In this document: positions 8,492 to 58,733 of the stretch, in pieces | Numbering within the stretch: position 1 is the stretch's first letter | How the letters are laid out: each line of letters begins with the position of its first letter | Assembly (NCBI GenBank): GCA_001929475.1 | Contig: LXFE01000239.1 | Coordinates: 1-59,945, forward strand | From: Neolecta irregularis DAH-3 | Taxonomy: Eukaryota | Reading direction: 5' to 3' | Length of the DNA stretch: 59,945 bases | Made by a program: the position numbers and the translations under genes | Notes under the pieces: model-generated | Database searches by the model: none | Told to the model about the DNA's origin: nothing | What the model saw: the letters and a program-made list of their open reading frames with translations, nothing else

Positions 8492-8916
8492 TTAATGATC
8501 TTCTGCCTTTCTCAAGATATTATCTGATTCTCCTGGTAAACGTTCTACACGCTTTTGTTCCCAGTTGTCTAATTCCTCGTTGCTCATTTGCAGTCGCTGG
8601 GATAAGCCGAGTAGAGAATGAGTTGAATACCCAGTACTCCTCTTTGAAATCAAATTTCCTTCGATTCCGCGCAATACTAAGAGCTTCCTCCTCCGTGACC
8701 TGTAAAATAAACACGTAGCTAACAGGCCAAATCCACCTCTTTGACTTTTCGGTCATGCCGCTCGTACTTTAATGTAGTCGCGTTCTCTAACGCAAATGAT
8801 CCAGCAACCATAGTCGCCATAAACGGCATGCCGAAAAGCATAAAAGGATGTCTATTAAACATTTTCCGAGCTCTTTCATAGAATGAACTCGGCAGTCTCC
8901 ATGTGCGCCGCTGCAT
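8492..8916 (-). CDS. COX16: Cytochrome c oxidase assembly protein Cox16
   Basis: HPFMLFGMPFMATMVAGSFAL, KYERHDRKV, RRKFDFKEEYW, DNWEQKRVERLPGE; two introns. Confidence 0.9.
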
Positions 8917-9016
8917 CAATGACGCGATGTTGAAACGAATCCCGTGATAAAAAGTACCAACGTTGAAATCATGTACGTCGATTCATGATGGACAACGAGG
9001 ATATTAATCATTGGCG

Positions 9017-10103
9017 ATGGATTTGACTGTTTCTTTGTACAAGATTCATGCACATCAAGGGTTACCTTCGAATCTCCCGCCAGCCCCAATTCTCCTGATC
9101 AAACGAATCAATTTCATATCCGGGACCCAACCGCGAGCGAATTTACAGGGACTAGTACAATCTACACCGGATCGGTACAAGTATTCGTCTTTAATATTCT
9201 AGGGTAACATTTGTAGACTGATTCTCAGTGATGGAGAATATAATATGCGCGGTACAAATGGAATCGGGGCTTCGAGACACTAATCAAGGAAAGCATTATT
9301 GCATTCTAGTTTAAATTTTCTGGTTTCATCGGATCCGCCCTTGATTAAAGTATCTGGACGAATCAAGTTGGATGAATACAGTACTTTTACGACTACTCGG
9401 AAGAACGGCGCTGGATTTGTTCGGTATATTTTGATCACGTCTGTGGTTCCTGTTGAACATACGGCGGGTATGCGAGTGGGAGGGTATGGGACGCCTGATG
9501 CGTGTGGAACGGGGAGTGCCTCACAGACCGTCTCAGTCATAGACAAGCCATTTCCTACTGCAATCCCATTCGACCAAACAACATTGAGAAATATATGTTA
9601 TTTAAAAGAATTGGAGACGAAGAAACATCGGGATATTGTGGGTAAACATTGTCATCCCTTCTTTTGCTCAGAAAACAGATATCTTTGCTGTTGTAACGTT
9701 TGTCGACAAAATTGTAAACAGACAAGGCGTAAGCCATACTCTCACCAAACCGGCGCTCTAACCCCGAACAAGTCTCAAAAACGGGACATTGATTTAATGG
9801 ATCTAACGAATCCTACTCCAACGAGATTAAGCGGTATCTCTTCCCCATCAACGAGTATAACTTAGCTGACATTTCCTTTTTCCGGGGAGGGCAGTCTGGC
9901 AAGATGTTTCTGCAGTCACCTTTCAAATTGGAGATGTAGTATTTTATCAACATCTTACAGCATGGAATTATCGTAATACGATGACTTTAAATGCATTTAT
10001 CCAACGCAACCCGAGAAAAGAAAACCCGAGAATTTTTATAAATCCTCAGTGTCCAGAGACAAATCAATTGCGAGAATGGTATTACCTTTTTAAACCGAGT
10101 TGA
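9017..10103 (+). CDS. Short RPA1-like OB-fold protein A (RPA70N-like plus one DBD-B-like OB fold), about 288 aa
   Basis: Exons 9017-9180, 9217-9251, 9294-9641, 9679-9728, 9773-9833, 9895-10103 are all GT-AG and splice in frame (867 nt). Product: PILLIKRI..DRYKLILSDGEYNMRALLHSSLNFLV ... VDIFAVVTFVD..QKRDIDLMDLT..TRLSVWQD..FQIGDVVFY..IFINPQCPETNQLREWY. Confidence 0.7.
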
Positions 10104-10501
10104 CGATTCTTGGTGGCGGAGTCGAGAGACCAGTAATCACAATCATACTACGCCATGAGAATGGTATCGAATGAGATAGTATCGGGATTGACCCGACACT
10201 CTTTTAATATTCGAAGCAAAGCGAGTATAACGACCGACATTACCTCGAGAATGATAGAAGCTACATAAAAATCCAACTTGAAGGCCTTTAGGTGTCGACT
10301 TTATCACAAGATAAGAAACGTAAAGAGAAGAAACTAATAATACCTGATTTTCCCACCTTCCAACAAGAAAATCCACCGTGATACACGTAAACTAGCAATA
10401 CCTGATTTTCTCAAATTTCCACTTTCCCAACAAAAAGAATCATACTCGTTCCAAGAAAATATCAAGTCCAACTAGAACGAGTACATCTATACCGCCGAGA
10501 A

Positions 10502-11478
10502 ATGACAAGGAAAATCACGATAGGCGCACTAAATTTAATACACAATGAAATCCCCGTCTTTCAACCCCTCTTGATCATCAAAAAAATCAAAAAACAAGAG
10601 GACAGTGAAATTGAAAAAAGAGTAGGATTTCCATGCCCATCACGATTCCGGTACCTTCAAAAGAAAGACGTAATTAACGTAAAGATTAGTGTTAAGTGAT
10701 GGGAAATATAATATGAGAGGTAAATTCTGGTTGAAAGTAGAGTAACACCAGGCGAATTAGTAAATTCGTTGCATTGGATGATCGAAAACGGTGATGACAA
10801 AATGGAAAAATTGAGTGAGGGGAGTATTATCATTCTTTTGAAATTTCATTTATTTCAAGTTTTTCGAAAGAGGGATGGGGTGAGTGTCAATTATATCTAC
10901 ATTGAAGAAATAAAATTACTCTCCCAAAAAATAAAGTTGGTAAAAGAAAAAGCACCTCTTGGTATAGTTTAACCGTTAGAATAAGAGTATTTCGCCTTTT
11001 AGTGTGCGGGCGATGGAGAGTGTTGTTCCGCCTGGGATTATTGGAAGAGTACGGACGTTGGCGGAGGTATTCGAAGAGAAAACTACGCCGGTGAATACTA
11101 AAGTAGGTAAGGAAGTCCAAGGAGAGAAAGTGTGTGTTGAAGGGTAGTTATTCTTGTTGTTGTGAAGAAGGTATTTGGGACGCGAGTTGCTGGACCGTTG
11201 GGTATAACCAGAGATCTCGAGGTTCAAGATACTTCAAAGGATGAAAGTATCAAGATTTCGGGTAAAACAAAAGGCTGGGTATTCGACTGACAATAGTATT
11301 TCAAGATGTTTCGAGTCTTGAATTTTATATTGGAGATGTATTGTTGTATGAAAACGTTACCGTGAGACGAATTCGAAATGAGGGGTTGTTGAATGCATTT
11401 CGTGAAGAAGGGACACTTTCACCGCGGGTGATAATTAATCCGAATTGCAAAGAAGGTAAAATTTTGCGACGATGGTGA
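10502..11478 (+). CDS. Short RPA1-like OB-fold protein B, tandem paralog of A, about 264 aa
   Basis: Exons 10502-10650, 10685-10719, 10752-10939, 10980-11106, 11148-11261, 11297-11478 splice in frame; a further exon to the stop at 11546 is possible. Product: ITIGALNLIH..QPLLIIKKI..SRFRLVLSDGKYNMRGEL ... ITRDLEVQDTS..IKISVFQDVSSLEFYIGDVLLY..LLNAF..PRVIINPNCKEGKILRRW. Confidence 0.65.
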
Positions 11479-11598
11479 GTAAAATTCAGAGGCGAGTTTA
11501 TTTTTTTTGATGGTATAGGTTCCTATGTTCAACCAGTAAGCTGTAGCTGCCCAGCGCAGAATGTACATCCGTATATAACAGAATACACTTTTTTAAAA

Positions 11599-13074
11599 TT
11601 ACAATGTGGTGCGTTTTGCGCAGAGTTCGTTTGAAAGTTGATCCATGTTTTTCGTAGAAAAGATTCTTGCGGCTCTCATGAATTCTCCGCGGAGTTCATA
11701 GAGGGCTGACTGGGTTACTGTTCTGCCTACGTTGTGGGTTATTTCAAAGGGATCTTCGATGGCGAGGATGTAGCGGTCTTTGATGGTGTTGTCGTACAAG
11801 CCCTGGTGGTGGACCTAGAGTGAGTGGGAGGTAAAATGAAAGGATACGGCGTGAGTCCAGCCTTTGTCGGCTTTGGAGATGACGCCGCTGTGGAGACGGA
11901 TGGCGATGCACTGGTCGCGAAAGTTGAATGTATGGCCAAAGAAGCGGAAGAAGCCTGCGAGGAGTTCTGCGAGGGACTGGGAGTTTTTTGAGATAAAGTG
12001 GAGCGAGGGCCAGTCGCGGTAGAACCAGACATTGTGTCCTGGAGTTAGCGGGGGAGTGTTTCGAGCGTACCGTTGCAGGAAAGAGCGCTTTGGGGGATGG
12101 TAACACCGTCTGGGGGTGGTATTAATTGGAGGTTTGGAAGGAGGGGCGGCTGAGTGCAGTTTAACAAATAGAATAGGATGAGTAGCACAAAGCCGTAGCT
12201 GTTGTCAGTGTGCGAAGGGGGTGATGTGACCTGGAAAGGCCTTTTGAGCGGTAAGTGTCGTTGATGTCGCGGCAGCGGGCCCAGTGTTTGACTGGAGAAT
12301 GAGCGGAGGAGAAGGGAGGCGGTCACCGAAGAGCACCATGGGGCGAACACGGGGATCGAGGCAGGAGTAGGCGTGGAGCAGGTCTGTGTTGTGGAGAGCG
12401 AGTCTGTTTTCAAACAGGCCGAGATCCGCGGGGGGAAGAGGTGGCAGTGACAGGCGGAGAATGGGGATGCGGGTGCGGAGCAGCAGCAGGACACTGAAGC
12501 CGTGGCGGCGGAGTAGAGCAGCGAATTCTGGAGGGTCGATGGATGGATGCGGATGCGGATGTATGGGTGGCAGGGTTTTCGGTAGGCTCGATAGAGGCGA
12601 CACGGCCTTCGAATGAGACAGAGTATTCGAACTGGATAGGGCATCCGAATTGGAAAGAGTATTCGAACTGGATAGGGTATTCGAATTGGATAGAGTATTC
12701 GAACTGGGTAGGGTATTCGAATTAGACAGAGTAGTCGAGTTGGATAGACTATTCGGAGTATGCAAATTCGAGAGAGGAGGCAGAGCACTTTGAGCAACCA
12801 ACTCCGGGCTCCCCTTTGCCTCTCCCTTCCTGCCGGTCTCTGCCACCAGCCTGTCTGCAAAAACACACATATCAATGTCTGAAGAAGCGAGCGCAAGTCC
12901 CGACGCGAGACTGCCAAACAGCAGAATGCGCACCGGCTGCAGCTCCTGCGCTGCCGCCTGCACCTGCGCCCGCATCGCCTCGCCACGCGCAATCTGCTGC
13001 TGCCCCGCTGCGACTGCGACTGCCGCTGCGTCGATGTATGCGCTTGCACTCGCATAGAAACTACTGGGTGCCAT
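11599..13074 (-). CDS. cid1: Cid1-like terminal uridylyltransferase / non-canonical poly(A) polymerase
   Basis: LFGSLASGLALASSDIDMC (GS..DxD), ENRLALHNTDLL..Y..LDPRVRPMVLFVKHWA, and ILAIEDPFEITHNVGRTV, which keeps the His typical of the Cid1 UTP-recognition loop. Confidence 0.82.
12608..12760. repeat. Imperfect 18-bp coding minisatellite, about 8 copies (SNTLS[S/N] on the minus strand)
   Basis: Units like gtattcgaactggatagg and gtattcgaattggataga alternate. Confidence 0.9.
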
Positions 13075-13159
13075 CTCGGGGTGGGGTCACGTGATGGAGT
13101 AGTAGTCCATGCTTTAGTGCATGCTCTGCTTTCCTCTCCCTGTTCCTCTATACGGCTAT

Positions 13160-13340
13160 TCCTCTGCTCTACTCCTACTCCTACTCCGCTATTCTACTCC
13201 TCCTACTCCGCTACTCCTCGTCTACTCCTACTCCGCCACCGCTACTCGTCTCCTCCTACCATCGATACTACACCTTCCTACACAACACCTACCTCCTACC
13301 ACATCGACTACATTCTCTACACACAATACTATACACACCT
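13160..13340. repeat. C/T/A-rich low-complexity tract, (CTACTC)n-like, in the cid1/TFG1 divergent promoter
   Basis: Repeated ctactc/ctcct/ctacac words, very few G. Confidence 0.75.
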
Positions 13341-13424
13341 TGTAGCATTGCCCTTTATCGTATCATCTTGGCTTTGTTCTGCTTACACACCTAGACTATC
13401 CCTTAAATCACGCCCAGATCACCC

Positions 13425-15177
13425 ATGTCTACACTCAAATTAAAGTCTTGCTCTCCCGCAGAACTCGCTTACGCCCGCCACAATCTCCTCAAACTCGCTT
13501 CTCATGCTCCCGTTCCCTTCCCGCACGCCTTTGTTGCTCCTCTCAAACTGCACCGCAGAGACCTTTCCTCCCTCGCCCCTGGCCCAGATCCCTCCCTTCC
13601 CCTCTCTCCCCCTTCTCCCCCCGCTGATCTCACCGCAATCGCCCCCTTTGGCGGTGCTCTGCGCGCAAAACAAAATGCCTTCAAGAAGAAAACCCGCCAG
13701 GTCACCCATGTAGACCCAGAGGAACGCAAATTGCGCCAGGAAGAACGTCTTCCCTGGGTCCTCGAGGACTTTGATGGCTCAAACACCTGGGCCGGCTCCC
13801 TCGAAGGCGCCCACACAGACTGCTACGTCCTCTTTGTCGCTCAGGGCTCAGATCTCCGCGTTGTCCCGGTAAATCGCTCCTACAAGTTCAAACACCGCCC
13901 CAGAGCCAGTCGCGGATCAGCTACCTCCCTTGAAGAAGCAGAAGAAACCGTAATATCCTCTTTCTCCAATGCTGATCCTTTAGTTGAAAAAAATGAAGGA
14001 GCGAAAGGAAGGCGCCCGCTGGTACCAAAAGATCAGAGACCAAGAGGCCGCCATCGCCTCCCAGAGCACTTCTGCCAAACAAGAACACTCTCGCCTACGC
14101 ACAATCCCCCGCTCAAATCCCCACACTCGCGTATGCATTTTTCATATCTCTTCTAACTCTAGCATCGCGAAGCCGGCGATGTCGACGAGCTCGATTTCAC
14201 CCAAGACTTTGCCGATGACGAAGAAACACCAATCTACGAGGGCAACGAAGAGGAGAACAAGGAACTAGAGGTAACCCTTCCCATCTTTTATCCTTAAAAG
14301 TAGGAAAAAATCAAGAGGGAAATGCTCAGTGCAAATGCCCTCGGCGATCCACCGAAAGACGATGATTTAGATGAGTTGTTTCAAGATACAAAAATGACGA
14401 AAGAAGGAAGAAAGCTCCAGAAATCTCTAAGAGCATTGGAGAAGAACCTTGCTTATGATAGCGACGACGAACGCAATCCCTATGCGTCAGAGGTATTTGT
14501 ACTCTGGTTTTCGCTGCCAACCGCAGGACGAAGAGTCCTCAAGCGACAGAGAAAGCGACAAGAAATCGGATATTTCCACAAAAGACGACAAACCTCATCC
14601 AGCTACAAAGACAAACGTCTCCCCAAACATTTCCCCGTCTGACTATTCTCTCTCTGCAAAACCCCTTTCCCATCGCTATCCCCGCTCTTCATCTCGAATC
14701 TCCAAAGTCGTCATCTTCAAACTCCCGCCCTCCAAACTCGAAGAGTTTGCCCAGAGTTTTGCAGGCATGGCAGTCTACCAGTCCCCTCCTCACTCTCGCG
14801 CCGCATCTCCAACACCCCAGAAACGTCCTCACGGACACGTGGAGACAAGCGACATGTCTGATGGCGGAGAAAATAAGAAAATAAAGATCAAATTGTCCAC
14901 TCCCCCGTTACCCTCCGTCGCACCTCCTGTATCCTCACAAAATCTGCATCCAAACGGTGCCCCTCCTAATATATCTAATCTAATACAAGACGCCTGGCTT
15001 ATCACAAAAGACGAACTCGCCGCGGCCATCTCGGAAAAGCGGCTTAATACAAAAGATTTGCTCGCCATGTTTAAACCAAAACTTCGGAGCGATCCTCGTA
15101 ATAAAGCTCGAATCTCTGTCTTGCTTAAGGAAGTCGCTATCCTAGAAGGTGGCTTTCTAATCCCGAGGAGATTATAA
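13425..15177 (+). CDS. TFG1: TFIIF large (alpha) subunit
   Basis: PLKLHRRD, IAPFGGALRAKQNAFKKKTRQV, EERLPWVLEDFDGSNTWAGSLEG, ELDFTQDFADDEE, YDSDDERNPY. Confidence 0.9.
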
Positions 15178-17118: not shown

Positions 17119-18761
17119 CTACAAAGGCAATTCAAAAGACACATTGACGTCTTGCTCTCGAGCCATTTTAAGCAGATTGCTAAATTTGCATACTTTAGAA
17201 GCCGCTTCATCGAGATCTAAAAGTCAATATGCAATTATCAGACTTGGGGAGAAAAACCGTTGAAGGAAAAGATTCGTAGACCGGAATCGTTTAACAGTTT
17301 TTGGGCTTCCTCTTGCATGTTTCCTTGTAAACGGACGACTACAGGGACATGTAAATTCATTTCGCCGACCACCGATACGAGACCTTTGGCTATATTATCA
17401 CACCGAACGATACCACCTGTGTTTTTGGTAAGACGATATATTTTAGGTTGGGTATACCAAAGATGTTGACAAAGATTGCGGTTACTTTGGGATCCGAGGT
17501 GATTAACTTGAACGCTTCCTTGATGGCATTGGCGGTTGCTGAACCCCCGCAATCTTTCAAGTCAGATGTATGCATATATGAATCGAGTTACCCAAGAAAT
17601 TAGCTGGCTCGCCACCATTTAATTTGATGATGTCCATTGTAGCCATAGCGAGACCAGCGCCATTGACTAGGTTGTTAGTATGTAAATTTTCTAATCCAGA
17701 GGGGTGGGGTATTACCCAAGCAACCAATTGTTCCGTCTAATTTAATGAAATTCAACCCAAATTCAGCAGCTTTGACTTCCTCGGGATCTTCCTGACTTTT
17801 ATCCCTTAAATCGAAAATCTCCTTTTGCCGATATTCAGCATTATCGTCAAACCCAAATTTTGCATCCATGGCCAACACTTGATGATCGGAAGACTCGGCC
17901 AGAGGGTTGATTTCAATCTGTGTAGCATCTTTCTCTATAAATATCTGGTATAGCTTCTTTATAGTCTCAGAAGCTTCGTTGATACATTGTGGGGAAAATC
18001 CAAGTTTTTCAGCAAGGTCGTTTGCGATTTCATTGGTAACGCCAACTTTGATATCAATTGGGACTCGAATAATAGCTTCAGGAGTTTCCTTTGCGACCAT
18101 TTCGATATCCACACCACCTTGCGAAGATGCAACGATCACTGGACCCTGGGAAACTCGATCCATAAGAATGGCCAGGTAAAATTCACGCCGGACGAATTTT
18201 CGCTCACAGATATAGACTGCGTTACATTGTTTTCCCCCTGGTCCGGTTTGTTTTGTGATTAGATTGTGTCCGAGCATTTGTTCGGCAAACATCTTGGCTT
18301 CGGTAGCTCTGGGAGAGATAAGCTTCGAGTTTGAATACTGTTGATTGTTACGAATAAATGGTCCGCACTCCACCCTTTAAACCATTGTCAAATGTACCTT
18401 TTCCACGTCCTCCTGCAAGTATTTGAGCTTTGATGACCATATCGTCAATGCCTGATTGATTATCAGCAAACGATTAGAGCACAAAAGACTGACCAAGGTC
18501 TTTGGCAACTTGTTCCGCTTCTTCAGCGGTTCTCGCTACGGCACCTTTGGGAACTCCAACACCGTACTAAAATACTTAACAGGATCATTGAACCAGTTCA
18601 TACTATTTTGAGAAGATCTGCAGAAAGATATTCATGTATTGAAAGATGCCGTTTTTGTTGGCTTTGCTAGGGCTTGTTACAATTGGATAAGTGCGATTAA
18701 GACTCACTCGTATCAGCCGCAAGGGCGTTTGTAAACTTGCGGCTCTTGCTACTTTGAACAT
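17119..18761 (-). CDS. LSC2: Succinyl-CoA ligase beta subunit, mitochondrial
   Basis: [58 protein letters not shown]-terminus VSFELPL*. Confidence 0.95.
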
Positions 18762-19486: not shown

Positions 19487-22400
19487 CTAATCACTCTCCG
19501 ACTCCTCAGCTGCATATTCTTCCTGGTACGAAAGTTTTGATTTAGGGAAACGAGCAGAACTCTCAGGAGAAGCAGATTCGCTTGCATTTGCGCTCAACGC
19601 AACAGGAGCTACAAACCCACCTGGCGCAAGTTCATCCAATTTTTGTTTGAGGAGTGCCTACGCATAAGCAACACGATGTATGGAACCCAAACCTCGAGAG
19701 CATTGGCATCATTGTACACAAAAGAGCCTTCTTCGTTATAAGTACGCGCGTTATTAAACATCAAATCAAAGTCTTGTCGAAACAGTTGTACATCCTTGTA
19801 GAAACCACTCTTGGCACGTTTCTTGATCTTATCCATAGCAATAGGTTCTCTGATAAAGTCGTAGTAATCTGCATAATGAGTTTTCGATGGCAATTTCTTG
19901 AAGAGATCTGAGCGATTGTGACCATCCCCGGGATCGATGCTGCTCTCCAAAACCTGAATGCAATTCTCGCAAAGAGAAATCATAGCAGCCTTCAATTTGG
20001 GATCGATGGCCGGTTGCCGACCACGTCTCTACAAAAGTAAGCTTCAAGTATCTGATATAAAATATGCCTTTACAGCGCTATCTCCTGTTCGTGCGCGCTT
20101 TCTCGTCGATTCGGTATTATCAATTGAGCCGCCTCTACTTGACCTGTCTCTTTTCTTGCGTCCGGAGATCTCGGACGCGTCAGGGCTCTCAGGCGAGTCT
20201 ATTGTCGCGGATGGAGACATGCCGTTGTGCTTGCGAGCAATTTTATTATCTGCACGTTTCTGTAATTTCTTGTGTTTCTCAGCCACGGCTCCTTCCAGAT
20301 CTTCATTATCAATGGCCTAACAGTCAGCAAACGACAGAGTGTTCTATATACATCGAGCCATTGTTCTTCAGTGAGTCCGTCATCATACTTGACTTGAGCG
20401 CGTTCACGAGCACCTCTACCAGCTGCAAATTCGATTTCATCAAATTGAATATGTTCCTCGTTCCGGTACAGGGCAGGGACTTCGTGGTCCATAAAAATTC
20501 TATCCAAGGCTTTCCCCTTGCCATATGGGCTTTCGCGTTCTCGCTGGATATCCATTTGCCGGAAAATATTCAGTTCATTCTCATTCCGAGATAAGATTTC
20601 GTTTAAATCCTCCTCATCGTACTCCTCGTCTTCATTTTCCTCGACATCGTTTTCTTGCTCAAGGAGTGACCGCAAAAACTCTTCTCGTTCTTCCGCAGTG
20701 GATTTATTGTCGAATTTTCCGGCTTGAATGACCTTACCGTCCAGGTCCAGTTTAAATTGTGCTCGTGCAAGAATATGCTCTTCGACAGACTTGGTAGTGA
20801 TCAACCGTAATATACGAACTTCTTTCGTCTGACCTATACGATGTGCGCGATCTTGGGCTTGAAGATCTTGATGAGGATTCTGAGAAGTTAGAGATCCGCT
20901 TACAGTAACAACTTACCCAATCAGAGTCGAAAATTATAACTGTATCGGCAGTTTGGAGATTCAAACCCAACCCTCCAGCTCGGGTGCTGAGCAAGAAAAT
21001 GAAGTATGGTGAATTTGGAGCATTGAAAACTTTTAGCATCTCCGACCGGTCGTCAGCTTTCGTAGAGCCATCTAGACGAAGATATGTATAGCCTCGATAA
21101 AGAAGAAAGTCTTCCATAATATGCATAATTTGGGTCATCTGAAAAAACATCAGGATCTATATAATAAGTTGATGGAAGAAAGAAGCGGGATATACGCGAT
21201 GACCAGTGACTTTAAATTTGGGTAGAATACGATCCAACAACTCAAATTTACCCGATACGCGCCAGAGCTTATCGTTATTCTGTTTCTCAGGATTGACAGT
21301 TTGTTCGACTTCCTCAAAAACAAACGGATGATTACAGACTTTCCGCAGCTGCATGATGGTGTTCTTGAGACCTTTGATGCCACTCTTCCCATGGCCACCC
21401 TCAACGAGGAGCATTTTACTGTTCTTCAGATGACCATACAAACGACTTTGTAATGCGGAAAACTTGCATTTGATAATTTTCTCCACTTTGTCGGGTAATT
21501 CAGATTCTACATCTTTCTTCAATCGTCGCAACAAGAAAGGTCGCAAAACCTTATGCAAACGCCTAATGACTAGCAAAGCTTCTTCTTCACTCAATTCCAT
21601 CTTATCTTGACCACCAGTATTCGCAAAAGGTGCATTGAACCATTCGTCAAAGCTCTTCACAGAGTTAAAGATTTTCGGAAGGACAAAGTTTAGAAGCGCC
21701 CACAATTCAGGAAGATTATTTTGAAGTGGAGTTCCGGTTAATATGAGCCTATAGCGCGTGGAATAGTAAGTGCAAAGCGTGCTCGTAAGTTTGGATTGCG
21801 TGTTCTTCATTCGATGACCTTCGTCTATGATCATATGGATCCATTTTATTTTAGAGAGGACAGGTCGGTCTTTGATGATATATTCATACGTAGTAAGCAG
21901 GACTTGGAAGTCATTTTTCCGCATATGTTGTTGCTGGATAGACCGGCGCGCCAATGGCGGACCTTTGTAGACAACTTTCCTCACAGCGGGAGCCCATTTC
22001 TCAAATTCAAGCTGCCAGTTTGTCATGGTACTGGAATGTAAGCATGTGTTTTACGGTTTGAAAACATACGACAACGGAACAATAACCAGAAAGGGTCCTG
22101 GTTGGCGTTTTTTCTCGATGAGAAATGCGATCAACGATATTGTTTGGATAGTTTTTCCAAGACCCATTTCATCTGCAAGAATACCATTAAGGTGATTGTT
22201 ATACAGCGAGACCATCCACTGCAATCCTTTGACTTGGTAATCCTTCAGTGTTCCGCCGACTAGCATTGCAGGCTGTTCGGTTACCTGTTCTTGAATCTTA
22301 TGCGCAACGTTGTAGTAATCAAGACTTTCATCTTCGCCAGCATCAGCTTCTTGGTCGCCCTCTTTTTCTTTCTTTTTGGGTATAGGGGCAACAGTTTCCA

Positions 22401-23846
22401 TTTCCTTTTGTTGAGCACGGACAGCCTGTGCAAGAGAGTCAAGGTAATGGTTGGTTTGTCCCAGAAGATGTGTAATACGGGTGTCTTTGGTTTGATCGAG
22501 AAGTTTCATATATGCCTCTTCATCATCAGCCTTGAGAGCTTGAAGACGTTGTTTTGCTGTTCGTTCCATTCTTCGCTGTTCTTCTTTTTCGATATACGAG
22601 TGATAACTAAGAACGGCTCGACCAATCTTCTGCTGCTTCGCCTGCACACCTTTACATCTTGCAATCATCTGCGTTCCGTGTTCACAGATCCTGTTCAAAC
22701 GATCTATTTCTTTTTGCTTCTCCCGGTGTTCACGCTCCATGCGTTGGCGGCGCTCAAGATCTTCAGTCAATCGAGCATCTTCTATTGTTGCCTTTTTCAT
22801 TCTTCGAAAAGCCGCACGATGAGCGGATGTTATGAGGCTATGGAACTGCGACATTGAACGGACCATATCCTGCCTCAAGGCACGTTGTCTTTTGAGCAAT
22901 CGTAGTGATTTTAATTCGATCAAGGCCTTCACTTTCAGATTGTTTTCTTCTTCGCCGTTGCCTTCATAGTCGTATTCCTGAATGTTTCCTGGGAGTCTTT
23001 CGAGCTCCGAAATGCGGTAGACGATGCGATTGTTCAGAGCTTTTTCGCGTTCTTCTAATGCGTTGGCAGGATTGAGGCCCTCGGGCATGATGCATGGAAC
23101 AATCACCCGGTTTTGTCGAATAGAATGCTCAAGATATCCTATTGGTCGCTTAATATCGTGGAACGGGGATGCCAAAAGCTCGTAATGAACCGGCTTGGTC
23201 GAAAACTCTTCGGCCTCAGCGGACGATTGATGACCCTCTTTGATATCGTCCAAAGTCCTTTCAATGACAGTAGATTTCGATTCAAGAAAAGGTGATTTAG
23301 GCATACTAGACGACCCTACGGCCAAAGCTTGTTGCATCGATTGCGGTAAAGGCATATTCTTAGATATATATTTAAAGGCAGAGATTTGTGTTCTAAGCAT
23401 ATTGAGCTGCTCCGTGGTGAAGGAAGAAGATAACGAAGGCATTTGAGCAGGTTGTTGGCCTTGGTTCAGTCTCATCTGTACTGGTTGCTGTTGTGGTTGA
23501 TTGAATTGGGCACCAATATTGCCTGGCATTATTTCATGATAGAAGACAGAAACTCATACCGTTCTGGGGGTTTTGCAATAAATGTTGCGGCATATTGCCG
23601 GCGGTATGTTGTTTGAGCATTTGTGATTGTTGCATTTGTTTGAACATAGCAGCTAGCTGCAAAGCCTCCTGTTGATGTGCATGATTTGGGGAACGTTTCA
23701 GTTCTTGGAATCTCTGTTTATCAAGAAGTCAGGCTGAGACACCTTAAAGCCGCGGAAAAATATACTTGGAAAAGTTGAGCATACTGCTCTTTTGTCATGG
23801 CGCTATTAAAGGGCGCAGACGGACGAGCAGCACTAACGGCATCCAT
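19487..23846 (-). CDS. snf21: SNF2-family chromatin remodelling ATPase (Snf21/Sth1/Snf2 type; QLQ, HSA, helicase, SnAC, bromodomain)
   Basis: [57 protein letters not shown], bromodomain [14 protein letters not shown]. The Sth1 versus Snf2 subfamily assignment is uncertain. Confidence 0.9.
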
Positions 23847-24052: not shown

Positions 24053-25970
24053 TTATGCGCTCGAGGTCAGGTTTTTTGACATATACGGGCCTAGACTAGT
24101 TAAAAATGCATTCTTGAAGCCATATTTCACCATCAAGATAATAGCCCAGTTTACTATAATAACGGCGAACGCCAACACCGGAGATAACGCAAATTTTCTC
24201 ACTCCCGTGCTCTTCCACAGCTATACGCTCGGCTTCTTCCATGAGAAGAGTACCATAACCTTGGTGCTGGAATTTCTTGGGATCTCGATTATGAAGTGGT
24301 ACCGAACTTCCATAAACGTGCAGCTCACGCACCAACGATGTCGGTTGATGAGTAAGCTCCGGCCGATAAGCTGTCGCGGCACATTTGCGTAATCGGAGCA
24401 GTCCAATGAGAATATCCTGTACCGGATCTTCATAGCTCAAAAAAGTCTCCCACCCTCCGTTCGCCACATAATCTCTTCGAATAAATTCAATCTGATCTGG
24501 ACGGACTTTGTGATGAACTTCTTGTATCCCAACTTCGCGAGTACGAATATCTCGACAAGATGTACCGAATTCTTTCATACGGCTAAGTGCCAGTTCTCTT
24601 AGATTCCCATTCTCGACTCCAGATGACACCAATGGCATAGGAATATCTCTTTGGATTCGATATATCCGAGTCCAAGGGGGAACTAACGCAAGAATACGAG
24701 CTACAAGATCTACCAGAGCATTTGGCGTATAATTTTTGTATCGTCCAGTTCTCCATAATTCATATAAACCGGTCCCTCGGATGACCAATGTAGGATAAAT
24801 TTTCAATCCATCAGATCGAAATGCTGGATTCTCGAAATATTCTGCAAACTGAAAGATGTCCCTCTCCACGCCCACATTTGGGAGGTCAGGCATCATATGA
24901 GAAACAACTTTGAAGCCAGCATCTTTGGCAAGAGCAAAAGTATGCTGCACCGCTTTGACTGTATGACCTCGATTTGTATCTCGAGCGACATCCTCGTAAA
25001 CGCTTTGAACACCAATCTCAAGCCGGGTACATCCATAGCGTAGCATTGAACTCCCATTAGAATGATGCAGATGGACCGTATACCTCAGGTGGGTATCCAG
25101 ACAGTAATCAGGCCGTGTTTCGATCGTGATTCCCACACATTTCGTATTTGATTGCTCGGCGAAACTAGTATTAGCAAACGGTAACATATAACCTACGCTA
25201 CTGCTTCATCGACATCTTCCGTGGTGTGGCCAGAAAGGGCATTATGAAGGTTGGATATGAACCAATTTCGATACTGTTCGGATAATGACATAAAAGTACC
25301 TCCCATGACAATGTATTCAACCTACTCGTCAGTCGGGGTAATATATTCCAACCTAGCTTATCGACGTTATGACCGAGACCTCTCAGTTGATCTACTCGGC
25401 CTCTGGCTTGTTCATAGGGATCATAGCGGGCTCGAATAGCTCGCATGCTTGTCGGTTCATATCCGGTATACGACTGCGTCGAATATTCAAAATCAGAGTC
25501 CGGACCTCCAGGACAGTATCTGCGGTCATAAGTCAAACGAGATCGACTTCATCATACACGCAAACGTTTCCAGTCATAGCAATGTGAGGACATCGGTGGG
25601 GTTTGCACATAACAGCAACCACAGCAATCTCAACGTCAGATTGTAGATTCGAGCACATAAATTACCCCAGATGCAGTCCTTACGGGTTTTGCTTTCAGTT
25701 TTGGGAGCAGATATGGCTTATATTGCTCCGGCACGGCTTGGATAATATCGACGAGACGTGGTTGAGCAGCCATTTTATGCTTCTTTGAGAAGCGCGCTTT
25801 CAATCCATTCAGGTTACATTCCCTTCCAGCTTCGTGTAACTTAATCAGCTCATTCGCGATATCAGTACAACATTTGATCATGAGTTCTGCCTGATGCCAG
25901 TGTAAGCTCGCGAAAAGACACTCCAAAGACGAACCGCTGAAAGCGAAGGAGATAAAACTTGATCCTTCAT
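24053..25970 (-). CDS. ELP3: Elongator subunit Elp3 (radical SAM plus KAT)
   Basis: [58 protein letters not shown]. Confidence 0.97.
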
Positions 25971-26381: not shown

Positions 26382-29300
26382 ATGAACGTCATTCAAAGCC
26401 CAAGTTTTCCATCTCCCATATCTCAGCGTCGAAGCACCGAGAAACATCGTGAGTCGCTCGATATCCCGGGATTCGCAGAAATGGCCCATGAAACAATTTT
26501 TGATGGTACCTGATCAGTTGTACACGAAACGTAATGGCAAGGTCCGATTTCCGAAAGTGTACCGAGTAGCATTTCGAGTTTCGCGCATAGACGGCATTCT
26601 CAAGCCGAGTCAGAAGCTGAAAGCGCATTGCATATCAGAATTTTCGGAGCGACAAATACGAGAGACACTGAGGATGATGAAGATGCTAAGACAAGTGTAT
26701 CAGAACTCTCCCGAATGGATGAAATTGAGCAGCACTTTGATGACGATCAAAGTTTTCTCGAGCAACATGGTTTCAGTTCAAGGCCATTATCCCTTACCGC
26801 CCCATTATTAAAAGACTTCGTTCCTGCTGGGGTGCGATGGGCTCAGGTAATTTATCTTGAAGAGGAAGCTATGTTTATCAAACTTCATGGTTATCGCACT
26901 ACGTGGTTTCGAAAGTTCATATATATTCTCATTTGCATTGGTACATTTGGTCTGGGCTACCTTGCCTTGCGATGGATTAAGAAATGGGAAATTAGAATTT
27001 TGGGATGTCCAACAGCCTTGGCTGACTGCGATTGGATTGCCATTCAAGTATGTTCTATATCACCACTGCCTCATTGTATAGAATAAATGGGATGAAGTTG
27101 ATATTATTCCAGTACAGAAGCGTCTCTTCAACCAAAATATTTCTGTACTCTTTGGAATCCGAAATCCAAATATCAGTACTGAAGATATAATGGAAGACTC
27201 TAACCTATCCTTCTTTCGATTCATTGACTATCGTTATACACGCCTCTATTTCAACCCACAATCACATTTGTTCATCTTGAACAATTCATGGAAAGACTCT
27301 AAGTGGCGATCCATCAAGGCCATGCGAAGTGGAATCGAACATGACATGAAAGATACAAGACTTTCGATCTTTGGTGAGAACGTCGTCGATATTGAAGAAA
27401 AGTCATTCTCACAATTACTTATTGAAGAAGTATTCACCTTCTAGAGATCCACTAACTTGAGCAAGTCGCTACACCCATTCTACATGTTTCAGATATTCTC
27501 GATTATACTCTGGTCCCTCGATGAGTACTATTATTATGCTGTAATTTCTGCAGCTTTCTTAACCTGATGGAAAGGCTTGCATATTTGTGATATCAGTCGG
27601 CAGTGTCGTCAGTAGTGTCGTTGATATACGTAATGTAAGTGACCTACTTTTGAGTGAAAGCTGAGTACAGACCATGATTCGCCTTCGAGAAATCTCTCGA
27701 TTTGTGTGTGATGTTAGAGTCCTCAGAAATGGATATTGTTAGAGAACAGTTTTGTTGTTTGCTGACTTTGTAGGGAGTACAGTTTCATCCTGCGATCTCG
27801 TTCCTGGAGATGTTTATGAAATATCAGCTCCAAATCTGAAAATATTTCCATGCGATTCACTCCTTTTGAGTGGAAGTTGCATTTCAAATGAAAGCATGTT
27901 GACTGGAGAATCAGTCCCCATCGCAAAGACAACGGCCACGAACAAGACAGTCAGAAAACTTAATATTTCAACATCCACAATCCCAGCTGACGTTGCTAAA
28001 CATTTTCTTTTTGCTGGCACAAAAGTCATCCGTGTTACCAGGCCTATTGCAAAAGGCGATGAGGAACCTGCAACATTGGCTATGGTAGTTCGAACTGGAT
28101 TCAATACAACAAAGGGTGCCTTGGTCAGAAGTATGCTCTTTCCAAAGCCTATAGGCTTCAAATTTTACCGTGATTCGTTTCGATACATTGGAGTACTAGC
28201 CATAATCGCCGTTCTTGGTTTCATCGTTTCTACCATCAATTTTATAGATTTGGGGGTTTCATATCTTTGCTCAGTTCGTACTAATTCAGTAGGTTCATTG
28301 GCGTCTCATAGTTTTCCGTGCTTTAGATCTAATCACCATTGTCGTTCCACCTGCGCTCCCAACAACTTTGACAATCGGTACAAAGTTTGCTATCTTTAGA
28401 TTGAAGCAAAAGAAAATTTTCTGTACAAGTCCCAATCGGTATTAATAAATCCCACCCAATGGCTCTGAATGTCCAGAATTATAGTAGCTGGGAAAGTAGA
28501 CATCGTTTGTTTCGATAAAACTGGTACTTTGACAGAAGAGGGCCTTGATATACTCGGTGTTCATCCAATCGAAAACACTTGGTACCTCTTACTATTTCAA
28601 TTAGGCTCAATACTATAGCTTTGGAGAGATATATACAACTTCTCAATCCCTTGTACCGACTCTGCAAAATTCAGAGCTCCTGGAAAACCGGAAGTCGCTT
28701 CTTCATGCAATGACGACTTGTCATGCAATCAAAATCATCGGCGGTGAACTTGCGGGTGATTCTTTAGATGTTAAGATGTTTGAATTTACTGGCTGGGATT
28801 ACGACGAAGAGGGGAATCTGGATTTGCAGCAAGAAGGGGAGGATCCTGCATCATCGACCCCAAAGGAAAACAACACATCTTCTGCATTGTCTTTTCCCGT
28901 GGTTCGTCCACCCATGACGTGCTCGAGTGATGATGAAACTACGAGCTCACAATCTGTATATCATTTCTTGAAATTTGCTCACTGTTAGATAAACCCCCAT
29001 GAACTGGGAATTGTTCGGGTCTTTGATTTCGCTTCTGATCTTCGCCGAATGAGTGTCTTGGTAAAACATTTTAATTCTACAAGCATGGAAGCATATGTTA
29101 AAGGTGCCCCGGAGATAATGAGAGACATATGCAATCCAAAATCAAGTAAAGATCTTTGACAATCGGTCTTACACTGTAGTTCCCAGAGACTATGAACAAC
29201 TACTCAGTACATATACGAAGCACGGCTATCGAGTTATCGCATGTGCTAATCGAGTGTTCCCAAAGATGTCTTGGATTCGATCACAGAGAATCAAGAGAAT

Positions 29301-38110: not shown

Positions 38111-38245
38111 TCACCACATATCTACCTAAAAGCAACGATTATGGATGGACGAATGGATGGATGGATGGGATATTGGTGGTGTCAGATATATAGATACTCG
38201 AATTTCCCAACCCTTTTTTTCCCAATTTATCCTCCTCCGTCAAAA

Positions 38246-39283
38246 ATGTCACCAGAAATTGCCCAAGTCGTAGATTCAGCAGCAAACGGAGAGAATATTA
38301 CCAAAGATATCCCATCAGACTTTCTAGTGAAAAACGACACAGAAACACCCCTTCTGGAAGAAAAAGTCGATGCCCCCAAACCTTGTCCCGCAAAACAAGA
38401 AAACAAAAGCCTCTTTGATCCTTCCGTGCTCCCTCAGAGTTCAGATCCACATGAAATACTAGCTCAAGTCGAATTTTACTTCTCAGATTCCAATTTGCCA
38501 AACGACAAATTTCTTTGGAGTCTTACCCAGGAAAACGATGGTTGGGTTCCTATTGCAACTATAGCCAGTTTTAAGCGAATGCGAAGGTTTCAACCGGTCG
38601 ATGCAATCTCAGAAGCGTTAAGACAGAGTCTGAATCTCCTAGAGGTCAATCAAGATGGCACCAAAGTTCGACGAAAAACACCTCTCGTAAAACAAGCCGG
38701 AAGCGCAGCCTTTGATCGAAGTATCTATGTAGTATGCACCTCCAATAATAACATGCAAACCTGACTTTTCAGAAAGGATTCGGCGAGGAAACAACTACGA
38801 TGCAAATCGATCTTGAAATTTTCTTCAAAGAGCTAGGGCCTGTCAACCAAATTCGAATGCGACGAGACGATGATAAAAAGTTCAAAGGCTCGATTTTTGT
38901 TGAATTTGGAGATATTGAAACTGCAAAGAAGGTTTTGGCAATGGAAGATAAACCCAAATGGAATGATTGCGAACTAGTTTTTATGAGCAAGAATGTTTTA
39001 AAATGCCTACGTGAACTAACTATTTAGAAAGGCGTATGTCGATATGAAGTCAGCTGAATACGGAGGCAAATTTCCCGAACGAAAAAAGAAATTCAATGCG
39101 TTTAAGGAAATGAACAAGTCAAACGGTAAACGACGCAATCATCAAGAAAAAAAAGACGACGAAGCTCAAGTTAAGGGTGAAGATGGCGAGACTAAAAAGC
39201 GAAAACATGAAGATTCTGATGCTCCACGAAAGCGAGGCCGTGGACGCGGACGTGGACGTGGAAAAGGAAGAAATAACGAGTAA
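38246..39283 (+). CDS. LHP1: La protein (La motif plus RRM)
   Basis: [52 protein letters not shown]. Confidence 0.92.
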
Positions 39284-46141: not shown

Positions 46142-48178
46142 ATGTCGGTTTACGAAAATCCTCCCGAGCATTGTATGCAGCTCTACGGAAAACATTTTTT
46201 GCTGACTTGCAGCTTTTGCGCAGCACGGTAATCAAAGTTATAATTTCAGCACTTCCATGCCCGCCCAAGTTGTTCCAGCTGGATACCCCAGTCACAGCCA
46301 TGTCTCTCTTCCGGACGACTTGCCTGCAGTTCTCGGATCACAGCCCCCATCCGGCACTGAAGGCACTCCCTTTTCTGTATTCTTATCACAAACGCAGTAT
46401 GACTCCCAACCTCGTACACTGAAGATTGTTTTCGGCTCTAAGCGTTGCGAAACAACCGTTTTGCACAAACATGGCCCTACAGGTGGCAATGTTCTCCACA
46501 CTCTTGTCCCACTATTCGCCGAAACACGATCTTATAATAATCAAGTCAACGTCTATGTTGTCGCTCAGGATGATCATGGGAACGAAATCGGAACTGTGAA
46601 GGTCTCTCAGTTTTCTTATTTGCAGGGTAAAATCTATGATTGGACTATACACTGAATGGAAGGCGGCGCAAGACCTCCCCAGAAGCGGAGAGGATCGTTC
46701 GATGACAGTGCTATTCCACGACTGGGAAGTCCCCCCCGAAGACCTTTGAGTCAACCATCTTTCGGATCAAGACGTAAATCTTTCTAAAATTCAAAACTAA
46801 TCTTCAGCCGATGATGATTATGCTCATGGTGGACCTCATCCTCCTGTGCATCATCACAGCTTTCCAGCTTATACCACTAATTCGGAGAGTCATGGGAATC
46901 CCTATGTTTATGGTAATTATGGTATTATTTAGCACTTTGGAAGAATCTAATGTGCAGCTCATGAAGCTGGTCATCCAGGATTCTACGGACCCGGTGGCCA
47001 TCGAAATCCAGCATTTTATCATCCTAGTTTTATGCCACAAAATCATAACAACTGGTCCGACTACGGGGAGAACAATACCGCCGGCCTGCCAGCGCCTTCG
47101 CCATTTGGACATACCACTGCGCCTCGTCCGGACGAGCAAACTGTATTTTATCGAACTCCACCAAAACAAAGCAATTCTGCAGTTGGAAGTGCTGGAGTTT
47201 CTGTATTTGATCCCCAAAGTCTCTTCCCGAACAAAGCTTCGCTTAAGCTTGTCGGTGATCTCGACGAAATGGCGCGCAATTGGCTTCCGGAAGAATGGGC
47301 TACACGCCGACGATTAGTTCAGTTTTGGCGTCAACAGCAAGGAAATACTATTCAGTGCACCTTTGGACCTGTTCTTCCAGCTGAAAGGTCTCCAAACAGT
47401 ATCTGTGTCAGTTGTATATGGTGGGAAGAAAAGGGGGAATGTTATGTCACATCAGTTGATACTCTTTATTTACTAGAGAGTCTTGTTGGGAATCGTTTTA
47501 CAGTCGAAGAGAAAAATCGAATTCGACGGAATTTGGAGGGATTCCGACCCCTTACAGTTTCAAAAGCTAAACCCGAATCTGAAGAGTTCTTCAAGCTGAT
47601 CATGGGATTTCCTACACCAAAACCTCGAAACATCGAAAAGGATGTCAAAGTATTCCCGTGGAGGATTTTTAGTAACGCCTTGAAAAAGATTATTGGCAAA
47701 TACGTATGCCCACGATAGTTATGATTCAATGCTGACGTTTGTATAGTCTTCCGGTCCTTTAAGTTCTGTTCCACATGTTGACTCGCCTGCAATGTCGAAT
47801 GCATCGACTTCTCCTTACCAAGACCATATGACGCCTCCAGGGTATCCTGATCATCCGGTCAATCAGCAGTATCCCTCTCCTGCCCCAAGCGGATCTCTCA
47901 AACAGTTACAACCGTTGGGACCTCCTCTGAAACCACCTGTTTTAGTCACGCAAGGGCTTCCAACAAGCGTATATCGCGGTCAGCAAAGAAGTTTTGCCTC
48001 GCACAGGCCATCTTTCGATGGCCGTCGACTGACTAGAAAATCCTTTGACTTTAACGAGTATTTTCAACCAAGTCCTGCAAGCGCTGAATCCAATGGCACA
48101 AAGCCGAAAGCTCCGGAACTTCCACTGGTAGCTGAAGAAACTGCCCCTGTTACTTCAACAGGTGAAGGGAAGGGATAG
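46142..48178 (+). CDS. medA: Medusa (MedA)-type developmental transcriptional regulator
   Basis: NKASLKLVGDLDEMARNW..EEWATRRRLVQFWR, ICVSCIWW, YVTSVDTLYLLESLVGNRFTVEEKNRIRRNLEG, FFKLIMGFPTPKPRNIEKDVKVFPW. The start codon is inferred. Confidence 0.9.
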
Positions 48179-53142: not shown

Positions 53143-54456
53143 TTACAGGATTCCGGAATCTTTCAAGGCGTTTTGTAAAAGAGTTTCTTTGACAGCTGCA
53201 AAGACGAGCCGTATATTAGACGTGTCTGTAGCACATGTTAAACTAAGGTCAGCTAGAGCGCAATGGAACATGTATACTGAGGATAAATAACTAGATTTGA
53301 GCGGTTGACAGCGTTGAATCTCCATAAAACGTACTTTGTAGCTTTCTTCTCGTCGGCACCGCCTAGAAAGTGAGGGATGAGAAGATTGGAGGGGTACCAG
53401 TGTAGTCATCGAAGTAATTTCCCAGAGGGACTTTGGGAAGTTTGATTCTAAACAAATCGATTTTGTTGAGGAAGAGGATGATGGAAGTTCTGATGAACCA
53501 GCGACTGTTGATTACGGACTCGAAGAGAACGAGACTTTCTTCCATTCGGTTCTAGTTATTAGAGAGGCTTTGGGATTAAGCACCTGTCCGGACTCTTCGA
53601 GAAGGACTTGATCGTACTCGCTTAGGGCCACGCAAAAGATGATTGAGGTGACTGCCTCGAAACAGTGGATCCATTTCTTGCGCTCTGAACGTTGGCCGCC
53701 GACGTCAAACATGCTGATATGGTTAGATAGAGGGACAGATTGACGTACTGGATGCTCAGCTGGCCTGTTGTGAAGCGCGTTTCGTAGATACCGGTAGTTT
53801 TTGTACGGGCGTAGAGCACGTCTGCCTCAGTGGGGATGTAGTTGGGCTGGCCTATCCGCTTGAGGTTTTCAAAGAAGCTTGCAGTTAGAAGAGATAGGGA
53901 TGCAAGAGCACTATGGGGCCGAGTCGAGGAAGTAGAATTCGTTCTGGCGGTCCAATACTGCGGCGGTGCTGGGATCGTGCCACAAGATATCCAAGGCTTC
54001 TGCGATGTCTGGGTCGAGGGAGACTGTGGGATTTGGGTCGAGGCGAAAGTCGAGGATCAGGTCTGTGTTTTCCTGGGAGATGAGCAGGGGCAAAACAGAT
54101 ACATACGTTGTTGCTGACGTTTTGTGGCTCGATGCCAAATTTGCGCATGGCGATGACGATAGACTTTGCGCCGTCGATGAGATTGCGGTAGATGGTCGAG
54201 CGGTAGAGGGCGAGTTCCTCGAGGGAATAGCCGTTCTGATGGATGATCTTCATCTGCTTGACGACTGTGGACTTGCCCGACTCGCCCGAGCCTGGCAAGA
54301 GTCAGCAGGAGGATGGGGATGTGACAGAAACGCACCGAGGAGGAGTATTTTGCATTCGCGGCGCAGGCGCTTTGCGTCTTCGTCGATCTCGCGGTCGATG
54401 GCGGAGCTGTGTGTTTTTGAGGCGGCGTGCTCTTCTGTGGAGAGACAGTTGCCCAT
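53143..54456 (-). CDS. gpa2: Heterotrimeric G-protein alpha subunit, group III (cAMP pathway)
   Basis: MGNCLS (myristoyl/palmitoyl), [51 protein letters not shown]. Confidence 0.92.
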
Positions 54457-54627
54457 CTGGGGCAGACTTGGCGGGGGAGGAGAAGACGAGTGTTTTTTGG
54501 GAGGGAAGGGGCGCGAGGGCGGAAGAAGGGAGGCGGGTCGCGGAAGAGCGGGGAGCAGCCGGAAGCGGCAGTGCGGGGCAACCAGGGCTGGATTGGACCA
54601 GGGGCTCGCGGGATGGGAAGGAAGCGG

Positions 54628-54698
54628 GATCAAGGTATTGGGAGGGATCAGCAGAGAGGGATCAGGGATCAGAGATCAGAGATCAGATCAGGGATCAG
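54628..54698. repeat. Cluster of 7 GATCAG (+1 GATCAA) motifs in the gpa2/hog1 divergent promoter
   Basis: GATCAG at 54646, 54660, 54667, 54674, 54681, 54686 and 54693. Confidence 0.8.
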
Positions 54699-54760
54699 CA
54701 GCAGTACTCGGCCGTGCCCGCTGCTATTCACCACACCCACCACCGGTTCTCTCCTGGGCG

Positions 54761-56193
<1,433 letters not shown>

Positions 56194-57702: not shown

Positions 57703-58467
57703 TTAGCTTTTTAAAGACTTTTCATTGATTTGTTTCAGCGCTTGTTGTAATCCCATGATCAACTTGAATCAGCCCTAATCAAATTACTCAAAATTTATAC
57801 CCCTGGAGCTTCAAATTGACGCGCAAGGTCATTCATTTGATGATGATTAAGTTGCCAATTAGAAGGCCGTTGATTCTCCGGGCCATAAATTCGATCAAGT
57901 TCCACTGATTTCTCGTGTACAAGTTTATGCTGCTCTTGCAGAAATTTAAGAGTTTTGAGACCGTCTATTGCTGGAACCGGGTTAAAATTGAATATGATGA
58001 AAATAAATTTAAAAACCTTTGTAATGGGACCATGCTCGATACGTTGCATAAAATCCTGGTAAATTAGGAATAACAGGGACAAGGGCCAAGGGTAAAGTAA
58101 GCGGCATAGCCGCCAGCCAAATGCATAGCCATTTAATATGAAGCGGCCTCCTCGAATCTAAAGCCAGAAAAATCGGGGTTGGCTCCGAGAACGATGGGTG
58201 AAGAAGAGGAATTGGATCTTTGACTTTTAATAAACTCGAGGGAATTGCTTTTAACGAATATTCCTCAAAATCAATCCGGTCCAAAAGATTTTGACCGGTC
58301 CGAGTTACTTTCTTCTTCCATGCAACCTCTGAAGTTGACCATGAATCCCAAAAACGAGCGGCCTTTGCGCTAGCGCGATCGAGTAGAGAGCTCTGAGTCT
58401 CTAGTTTTTGAATTTGACAGTATAGAAAGGACCGCGATGCATTTAAAGGTATTAGTATCAAGCGCAT
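57703..58467 (-). CDS. Mitochondrial K+/H+ exchange-related protein (YDL183C/Mrx19-like)
   Basis: MRLILIPL, W...WKKKV..G..LLDRIDFEEYSLKAIP, PLTLPLALVPVIPNLPGFY..YRAWSHYKA. Confidence 0.75.
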
Positions 58468-58733
58468 TGTAACTTTTTGGATACAAAAATAACCGAGTTT
58501 GTCAGGCGGTTTCAAGTCAAGACAATATTTACATTCAATGACGTCGGAATTCATCACATCCTTTTCATTGCGAGAAATATTTCCACGCTGCAATAGTGGT
58601 AAATGTTGTTTCACCTATAATTACATTGTATGATTTCTATCTAGCTATATTTTCGTGGACGTAACAAGCGCGCACACAAAAAACATTCCACTTCGATGTC
58701 ACGTGGCGTCGACATTCTTTGTGCTTTTCGCTT

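Follow-up and report, generated by a model that had tools for sequence, protein, structure and literature searches.

The window analysed here (the whole 59,945 nt of contig LXFE01000239.1 of Neolecta irregularis DAH-3, forward strand) contains two adjacent plus-strand genes, designated g1 and g2. Their products are probably RPA1-derived proteins with two OB folds, one resembling the N-terminal domain of RPA70 (70N) and one resembling its domain DBD-B, that would serve, independently of the RPA trimer, as small adaptors associated with single-stranded DNA (ssDNA). The two genes, which an earlier note on this DNA had described as a hidden pair of 'mini-RPA1' genes, are confirmed as two genes and form an old tandem duplicate. 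Purifying selection acts on both, and a related organism has them in the same order. RPA1 itself works only inside the RPA trimer, where 70N is the main docking site of RPA for checkpoint and repair proteins.

Exon models were derived from the window with a script and compared with sequences of one related organism, namely an intron-free contig (L001) and three proteins (P0001, P0005 and P0008). L001 was found in a metagenome scan, P0005 is a member of the 90% cluster of P0001, and P0008 was obtained by exact look-up of an open reading frame (ORF) of L001. The resulting models are as follows.

9017-10103, plus strand: g1, six exons, 288 aa, RPA1-like, script-built exon model from the window
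9017-9180, 9217-9251 (35 nt), 9294-9641, 9679-9728, 9773-9833 and 9895-10103 (stop included), plus strand: exons of g1
10502-11546, plus strand: g2, seven exons, 269 aa, paralog of g1, script-built exon model
10502-10650, 10685-10719 (35 nt), 10761-10939, 10980-11106, 11148-11261, 11297-11474 and 11519-11546 (stop included), plus strand: exons of g2
11475-11518, plus strand: intron 6 of g2, 44 nt, GTGAGT..AG, phase 2, gone from L001, with P0008 having the predicted extended C-terminus

All 11 introns of the two genes are between 34 and 61 nt in length with GT..AG ends. An in-frame stop lies 9 nt 5' of the g1 ATG (frame 9008..9202), and both predicted proteins are basic, with pI values of 9.4 and 9.6. 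The spliced lengths of ~288 and ~264 aa given in the earlier note were exact for g1 and close, though inexact, for g2, which encodes 269 aa. Retention of g2 intron 6 leads to a stop at 11478 and a protein of 261 aa; this position had been taken as the end of g2, with the intron at 11475-11518, absent from L001, being overlooked.

Three alternative models were rejected. For g2 intron 3, 13 frame-preserving GT..AG pairs are available, among which L001 and P0008 favour 10940-10979. A GTGAGT donor at 10880 in g2 was discarded because the stretch it would excise aligns to g1 coding sequence. An intron directly after the L-R-E-W codons of g1 had been prompted by the deviant C-terminus of P0005 and was discarded for the window, as the 37-nt gap in question has no GT..AG ends, is flanked by a TGGT repeat and is read straight through by P0001. 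It should be noted of this gap that the C-terminus of P0005 (window 10079-10120) deviates from both P0001 and g1 directly after these codons, that the codon and phase are those of g2 intron 6, and that TGGT forms a direct repeat on its flanks. It may represent an artefact or a non-canonical splice.

Comparison with the relative supported the models. P0005 (285 aa) follows the g1 model collinearly from the same methionine on, without internal gaps and with 232 of 285 residues identical. Residues 68-269 of g2 are likewise matched collinearly by P0008 (200 aa, 164/200 identical), whose two 1-aa indels lie away from the exon junctions. L001 aligns to the window in blocks from which g1 introns 3-5 and g2 introns 1, 3, 5 and 6 are missing exactly, and P0008 shows the productive junctions of g2 introns 3-6 plus the extended C-terminus. 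Overall, every intron of g1 and introns 1 and 3-6 of g2 have support from the relative, and the segments missing from its sequences coincide with predicted introns. Positions 1-1837 of L001 (window 9430-11612) hold the 3' part of g1 from exon 3, a spacer of ~400 nt and g2, the order being unchanged from the window. L001 is most simply explained as RNA-derived, because it is intron-free and carries alternative junctions, and the single contig spanning g1 to g2 suggests read-through or overlapping transcripts.

The distribution of the pair looks narrow. When 1,835,955,588 protein representatives were searched by full HMMER with g1 exon 3, four matches at E <= 0.001 were obtained, one of which (P0001) is a true relative; the other three, long repeat proteins each matched in 8-12 stretches, were set aside as compositional. 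The same exon compared with longer proteins gave 140 candidates, none of which scored, and a word-index search with P0001 and P0005 returned only P0001. The metagenome scan yielded 91 pattern matches and one confirmed locus, L001. Beyond the three protein fragments of the one relative, no relatives were detected in these 1.84 billion proteins; genes with short exons such as g1 and g2 can be absent from protein databases.

Between the window and L001, omega was 0.34 for g1 (176 codons, dS 0.38) and 0.19 for g2 (262 codons, dS 0.51), and therefore both genes are under purifying selection. These values bear on the explanation that g1 and g2 are decaying duplicates or mis-modelled, functionless ORFs. 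In its favour, and counting against functional adaptors, two g2 splice forms in L001 break the frame (one uses an upstream acceptor for intron 2, the other a donor lying 4 nt further upstream for intron 4), and the lack of further relatives in very large protein sets points the same way. Against it stand ORFs that are intact in two organisms, the omega range of 0.19-0.34, the productive g2 splice form represented by P0008 and the intron positions kept between the paralogs, so that decay is considered extremely improbable.

The paralogy of g1 and g2 is far beyond chance: a blastp comparison gave 72/262 identities (27%) with an E-value of 9e-23, and a global alignment gave 79 identities in 296 columns. 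Introns are found in the same aligned codons in three cases, in phase 2 before the 35-nt exon, in phase 1 after it and in phase 1 before the exon with WQDVS in g1 and FQDVS in g2. A fourth pair, g1 intron 3 and g2 intron 4, is in phase 1 in both genes and is offset by one aligned residue. Of four intron positions and phases said to be shared, three are thus exact and the fourth agrees in phase only. Intron 4 of g1 and introns 3 and 6 of g2 are not in common. The short exon is indeed of equal length in both genes (9217-9251 and 10685-10719) and encodes LILSDGEYNMR in g1. The alignable end motifs also proved to be present, with 28 invariant columns in a 68-column alignment of the last-but-one/last exons. 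No third copy was found in the window by tblastn.

Evidence for the nature of the two proteins came from profile searches, with the domains of g1 placed as follows.

9017-9445, plus strand: N-terminal RPA70N-like (Rep-A_N-like) domain of g1, ~aa 1-117, exons 1-3 including the 35-nt exon, limits estimated
9566-10085, plus strand: C-terminal DBD-B-like OB domain of g1, ~aa 158-283, end of exon 3 to exon 6, limits estimated

When P0005 was searched against Pfam at E <= 10, only two families were reported, Rep-A_N followed by REPA_OB_2, in the order in which they occur in RPA1. Rep-A_N (PF04057) matched residues 48-97 (E 3.2e-5, 24.3 bits, profile positions 34-81/101), and REPA_OB_2 (PF16900, the DBD-B model) matched residues 170-223 (E 2.7e-4, 21.3 bits). 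The latter family also matched P0001 (E 1.2e-4), with scores of 21.3-22.4 bits across the two proteins. On the g2 side, the N-terminal piece of the g2 ortholog gave a weak match to Rep-A_N (E 0.045). A profile built from g1- and g2-type sequences (A4) had full-length human RPA70 (8rk2_A) as its best match in the PDB, with an E-value of 0.0027, and aligned to it in three collinear stretches, 16-71 (70N), 297-354 (start of DBD-B) and 396-416 (end of DBD-B); among the PDB matches listed, 15 of 22 were named RPA70. Profile A6 gave the same top match (E 0.03), with 13 of the 19 matches listed being named RPA70. With a profile of the second OB domain only (A5), the RPA70 DBD-A/B constructs 1jmc and 1fgu were best, and both aligned stretches fell within DBD-B. 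The order of an RPA70N-like and a DBD-B-like domain proposed in the earlier note is supported by the sub-cut-off Rep-A_N and REPA_OB_2 matches of P0005 and by the collinearity of A4 with human RPA70.

In a look-up in the ESM Atlas, the ten entries listed for P0005 were all OB-fold or ssDNA-binding families (POT1, CDC24 OB, REPA_OB_2, RADX, MEIOB and Rep-A_N) or unnamed clusters. One was a 292-aa Ascomycota cluster with REPA_OB_2 in 56% of its members. These entries are leads only. The same look-up with g1 exon 3 gave no usable match.

A number of results weigh against this domain assignment. The Pfam scores lie under the curated gathering cut-offs (24.3 vs 26.7 bits for Rep-A_N and 21.3-22.4 vs 27 bits for REPA_OB_2), and the REPA_OB_2 matches in P0001 and P0005 cover only positions 1-59 of 98. 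P0008, which is of g2 type and spans residues 68-269, matched no Pfam family. Eight single-exon translations searched against Pfam gave no RPA family and a weak DUF7422 match (E 0.055), a profile made from the two C-terminal exons had 20 weak matches in the PDB with no RPA among them, and phmmer searches of the PDB returned one weak match to colicin D for g1 exon 3 and eight weak matches, none to RPA, for P0005. The failure of the exon-level profile searches is attributed to single exons being too short. AlphaFold2 models were unusable, with a mean pLDDT of 35.5 for P0005 (7-row alignment) and 38.3 for its second OB part (5-row alignment), because alignment depth was lacking. The OB folds are therefore argued from sequence profiles only, and we infer them together with DNA binding, partner binding and biological role.

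These points raise the alternative that the likeness to RPA1 is spurious and that g1 and g2, as real genes, belong to a lineage-specific family of another fold. All RPA matches being sub-threshold or marginal, the exon-level and single-sequence searches without an RPA match and the absence of a confident AlphaFold2 fold would agree with it. It does not account for two independent RPA1-specific domain matches that follow the RPA1 order and each reach E < 1e-3 in a search of the whole of Pfam, nor for three collinear stretches on a single RPA70 chain with RPA70 making up 13-15 of the 19-22 PDB matches listed, and it is regarded as unlikely. An origin of both proteins from RPA1 is the favoured reading.

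With respect to the remaining domains of RPA1, the linker between the two matched domains is ~40 aa, and consequently there is no DBD-A. Agreeing with this, DBD-A (tRNA_anti-codon type, F238/F269) gave no Pfam match for P0005 at E <= 10, and all A4 stretches on RPA70 belong to 70N or DBD-B. In the window as well as in P0001, P0005 and P0008, just 7-8 aa follow the L-R-x-W of the DBD-B-like domain. As the ORFs stop directly after this domain, DBD-C is absent; its zinc-ribbon family (Rep_fac-A_C) was not matched by P0005 at the same threshold, and in L001 the 398-nt spacer between g1 and g2 shows no spliced-on exon. The zinc-bearing DBD-C ties RPA1 to RPA2 and RPA3, and its absence removes the known route into the RPA1-RPA2-RPA3 trimer. 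The lack of DBD-A and DBD-C had already been noticed earlier, and the linker length and the ORF ends in the window and in the intron-free relative bear it out.

Residues of the two proteins were compared with those of human RPA70. R31, R43 and R91 of 70N form basic-cleft contacts to acidic partner helices, with R43 being key (PMC5457501). In the HMMER alignment of A4, human R41-Y42-R43 corresponds to R-Y-K in the g1 type, and the g2 type has R-F-R. Equivalents of R31 and R91 could not be placed reliably in either protein. For DBD-B, W361 and F386 are described as conserved DNA-stacking residues (PMC4937323). Judged by eye, as HMMER left residues 355-395 unaligned, the W of WQDVS in g1 (F in g2) falls at the position of W361. 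Three further points count against the adaptor reading: the R31 equivalent is non-basic in g1 (by eye, from a plain alignment), an aromatic residue at the F386 equivalent is seen by eye in g1 only (in a nearby W-N-Y) and not in g2, and isolated DBD-B binds DNA weakly, so that DNA binding may be poor.

Under the favoured reading, an RPA1/RPA70-derived gene would have undergone tandem duplication to give g1 and g2, each encoding a 70N-like OB fold, the ~40-aa linker and one DBD-B-like OB fold, with no DBD-A or DBD-C. The DBD-B-like domain would make weak contact with ssDNA, and partner proteins (repair, checkpoint or helicase) would dock by their acidic-helix motifs in the 70N-like cleft, which has kept a basic residue where human RPA70 has R43. 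A more elaborate form of this scheme is put forward tentatively: the two proteins might pair via their OB folds as a lineage-restricted 'mini-RPA'. With two clefts for clients and two domains that each bind DNA weakly, such a pair could sense ssDNA independently of the trimer, and could either bring in or hold back checkpoint and repair factors at a particular class of ssDNA, for example at overhangs of telomeres, in resected DNA during meiosis or at forks that have stalled.

The same residues are relevant to a decoy or regulatory role, in which the 70N-like domain would mainly compete for the checkpoint, helicase or nuclease clients of RPA, and the second OB fold would serve dimerisation or stability instead of binding DNA. 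Such a role would fit the basic residue at the R43 position in both paralogs, the missing aromatic residue at the F386 equivalent of g2 (by eye) and the inability of either protein, lacking DBD-C, to enter the RPA trimer. It is less easily reconciled with the DBD-B-like half being the better conserved one, since P0005 and P0008 share 39% identity over 80 aa and their N-terminal halves give no significant match; the W/F kept at the W361 position and the overall basic character of both proteins also count against it. A decoy function is accordingly rated as a doubtful possibility.

A telomere-end or other sequence-specific ssDNA binder, with a POT1- or CST-like role fulfilled by RPA1-derived OB folds, was also considered. 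The top ESM Atlas look-alike of P0005 is a ~309-aa POT1-domain cluster (score 0.91), with more POT1 entries following, again as leads only, and RPA1 paralogs of ciliates serve telomerase. The Pfam results for P0005 at E <= 10 contain no POT1, Stn1, Ten1, Est3/TPP1 or CDC13 family, among them POT1 (PF02765) and its relatives, and shuffled proteins, too, reach Atlas scores near 0.9 in 4-10 of 100 cases. This role is judged to be distinctly unlikely.

Compared with RPA1/RPA70 (Rfa1, Ssb1), g1 and g2 share a Rep-A_N-like domain with R-Y-(K/R)-L-x-L-S-D-G, the same domain order and a DBD-B-like OB fold that ends in I-N-P-x-C/I-P/K-E...L-R-x-W. They differ in being a tandem pair of paralogs of 288 and 269 aa, under half of the human chain of 616 aa, and in lacking DBD-A and DBD-C with its zinc ribbon, with the other two features being sub-threshold. 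RADX is likewise an RPA1-derived OB-fold protein outside the RPA trimer, and a RADX cluster was among the Atlas entries (0.89, a lead only); however, it is a far longer protein with a larger number of OB folds, known from vertebrates. MEIOB, the meiotic RPA1 paralog and partner of SPATA22, resembles the pair in its REPA_OB_2-type domain and its paralogous partner, and a MEIOB cluster was listed at 0.88, also a lead only; it has no 70N, whereas it retains DBD-A- and DBD-C-like folds. Neither RADX (PF17659) nor OB_MEIOB_N (PF24903) was matched by P0005 or P0008 in Pfam at E <= 10. Short RPA1 forms of protists and multiple RPA1 paralogs of plants show that RPA1 domain sets vary by lineage and that paralogs can subfunctionalise (PMC4731521, PMC5161316, PMC4269926). 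Those forms either lose 70N and retain DBD-A, -B and -C or have the full domain set, whereas g1 and g2 keep 70N and lose DBD-A and DBD-C. No fungal or other protein with 70N and DBD-B only was found in the literature covered, most subscription journals and supplements lying outside this coverage. The architecture of g1 and g2 is unusual, the genes are clearly functional, and the family looks narrow.

Upstream of g2, a repeated sequence was detected which may have a role in the expression of this gene.

10339-10352 and 10397-10410, plus strand: two exact copies of AATACCTGATTTTC, 163 and 105 nt 5' of the g2 start codon, candidate regulatory element

The two matches in the window compare with 0.09 expected, and 100 shuffles never gave as many. 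In L001, the corresponding stretch holds three copies with 1-2 mismatches (786-799, 831-844 and 859-872), a number reached in none of 200 shuffles. The element, written as AATACCTGATTT(T/C), is thus a repeat conserved in the relative, lies 90-165 nt 5' of the start codon of g2 and may serve this gene as a transcription-factor site. MCB-like promoter motifs were also looked for and were not meaningful, the ACGCG core being found once upstream of g1, not upstream of g2 and 59 times in the window.

The immediate neighbours of the pair are as follows.

8719-8982, minus strand: COX16 (cytochrome c oxidase assembly) exon, Pfam E 3e-11, divergent from g1
11599-13193 (12205-13086), minus strand: poly(A)-polymerase-like nucleotidyltransferase, MTPAP-like_central E 8e-11 and NTP_transf_2, convergent with g2

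The likely start codons of COX16 and g1 are ~100 nt apart, and the 3' end of the nucleotidyltransferase gene lies at most ~100 nt from the g2 stop. Elsewhere in the window, ordinary eukaryotic genes were identified by Pfam at 1403-2167 (anoctamin), 17675-18376 (ATP-grasp_2), 20199-23553 (a Snf2/Brg1-type remodeller with QLQ, HSA, SNF2 and SnAC), 24096-25205 (Elp3, with radical SAM and GNAT), 27743-28399 (P-type ATPase), 38111-38764 (La domain), 46951-47718 (DUF7082) and 58009-58614 (Mit_KHE1). The GC content is ~0.55 at 12001-14000 and 54001-56000 against 0.40-0.46 in the rest of the window, and each of these two stretches has several long overlapping open frames on both strands. Rfam and tRNA scans of the window gave no match.

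If the favoured reading of g1 and g2 is true, a conserved and constrained combination of 70N with one DNA-binding OB fold, from which both high-affinity DBD-A and the domain for trimerisation have been dropped, would represent a natural separation-of-function form of RPA1. The pair could then show what 70N and DBD-B do alone, and could reveal a lineage-specific layer of ssDNA signalling.

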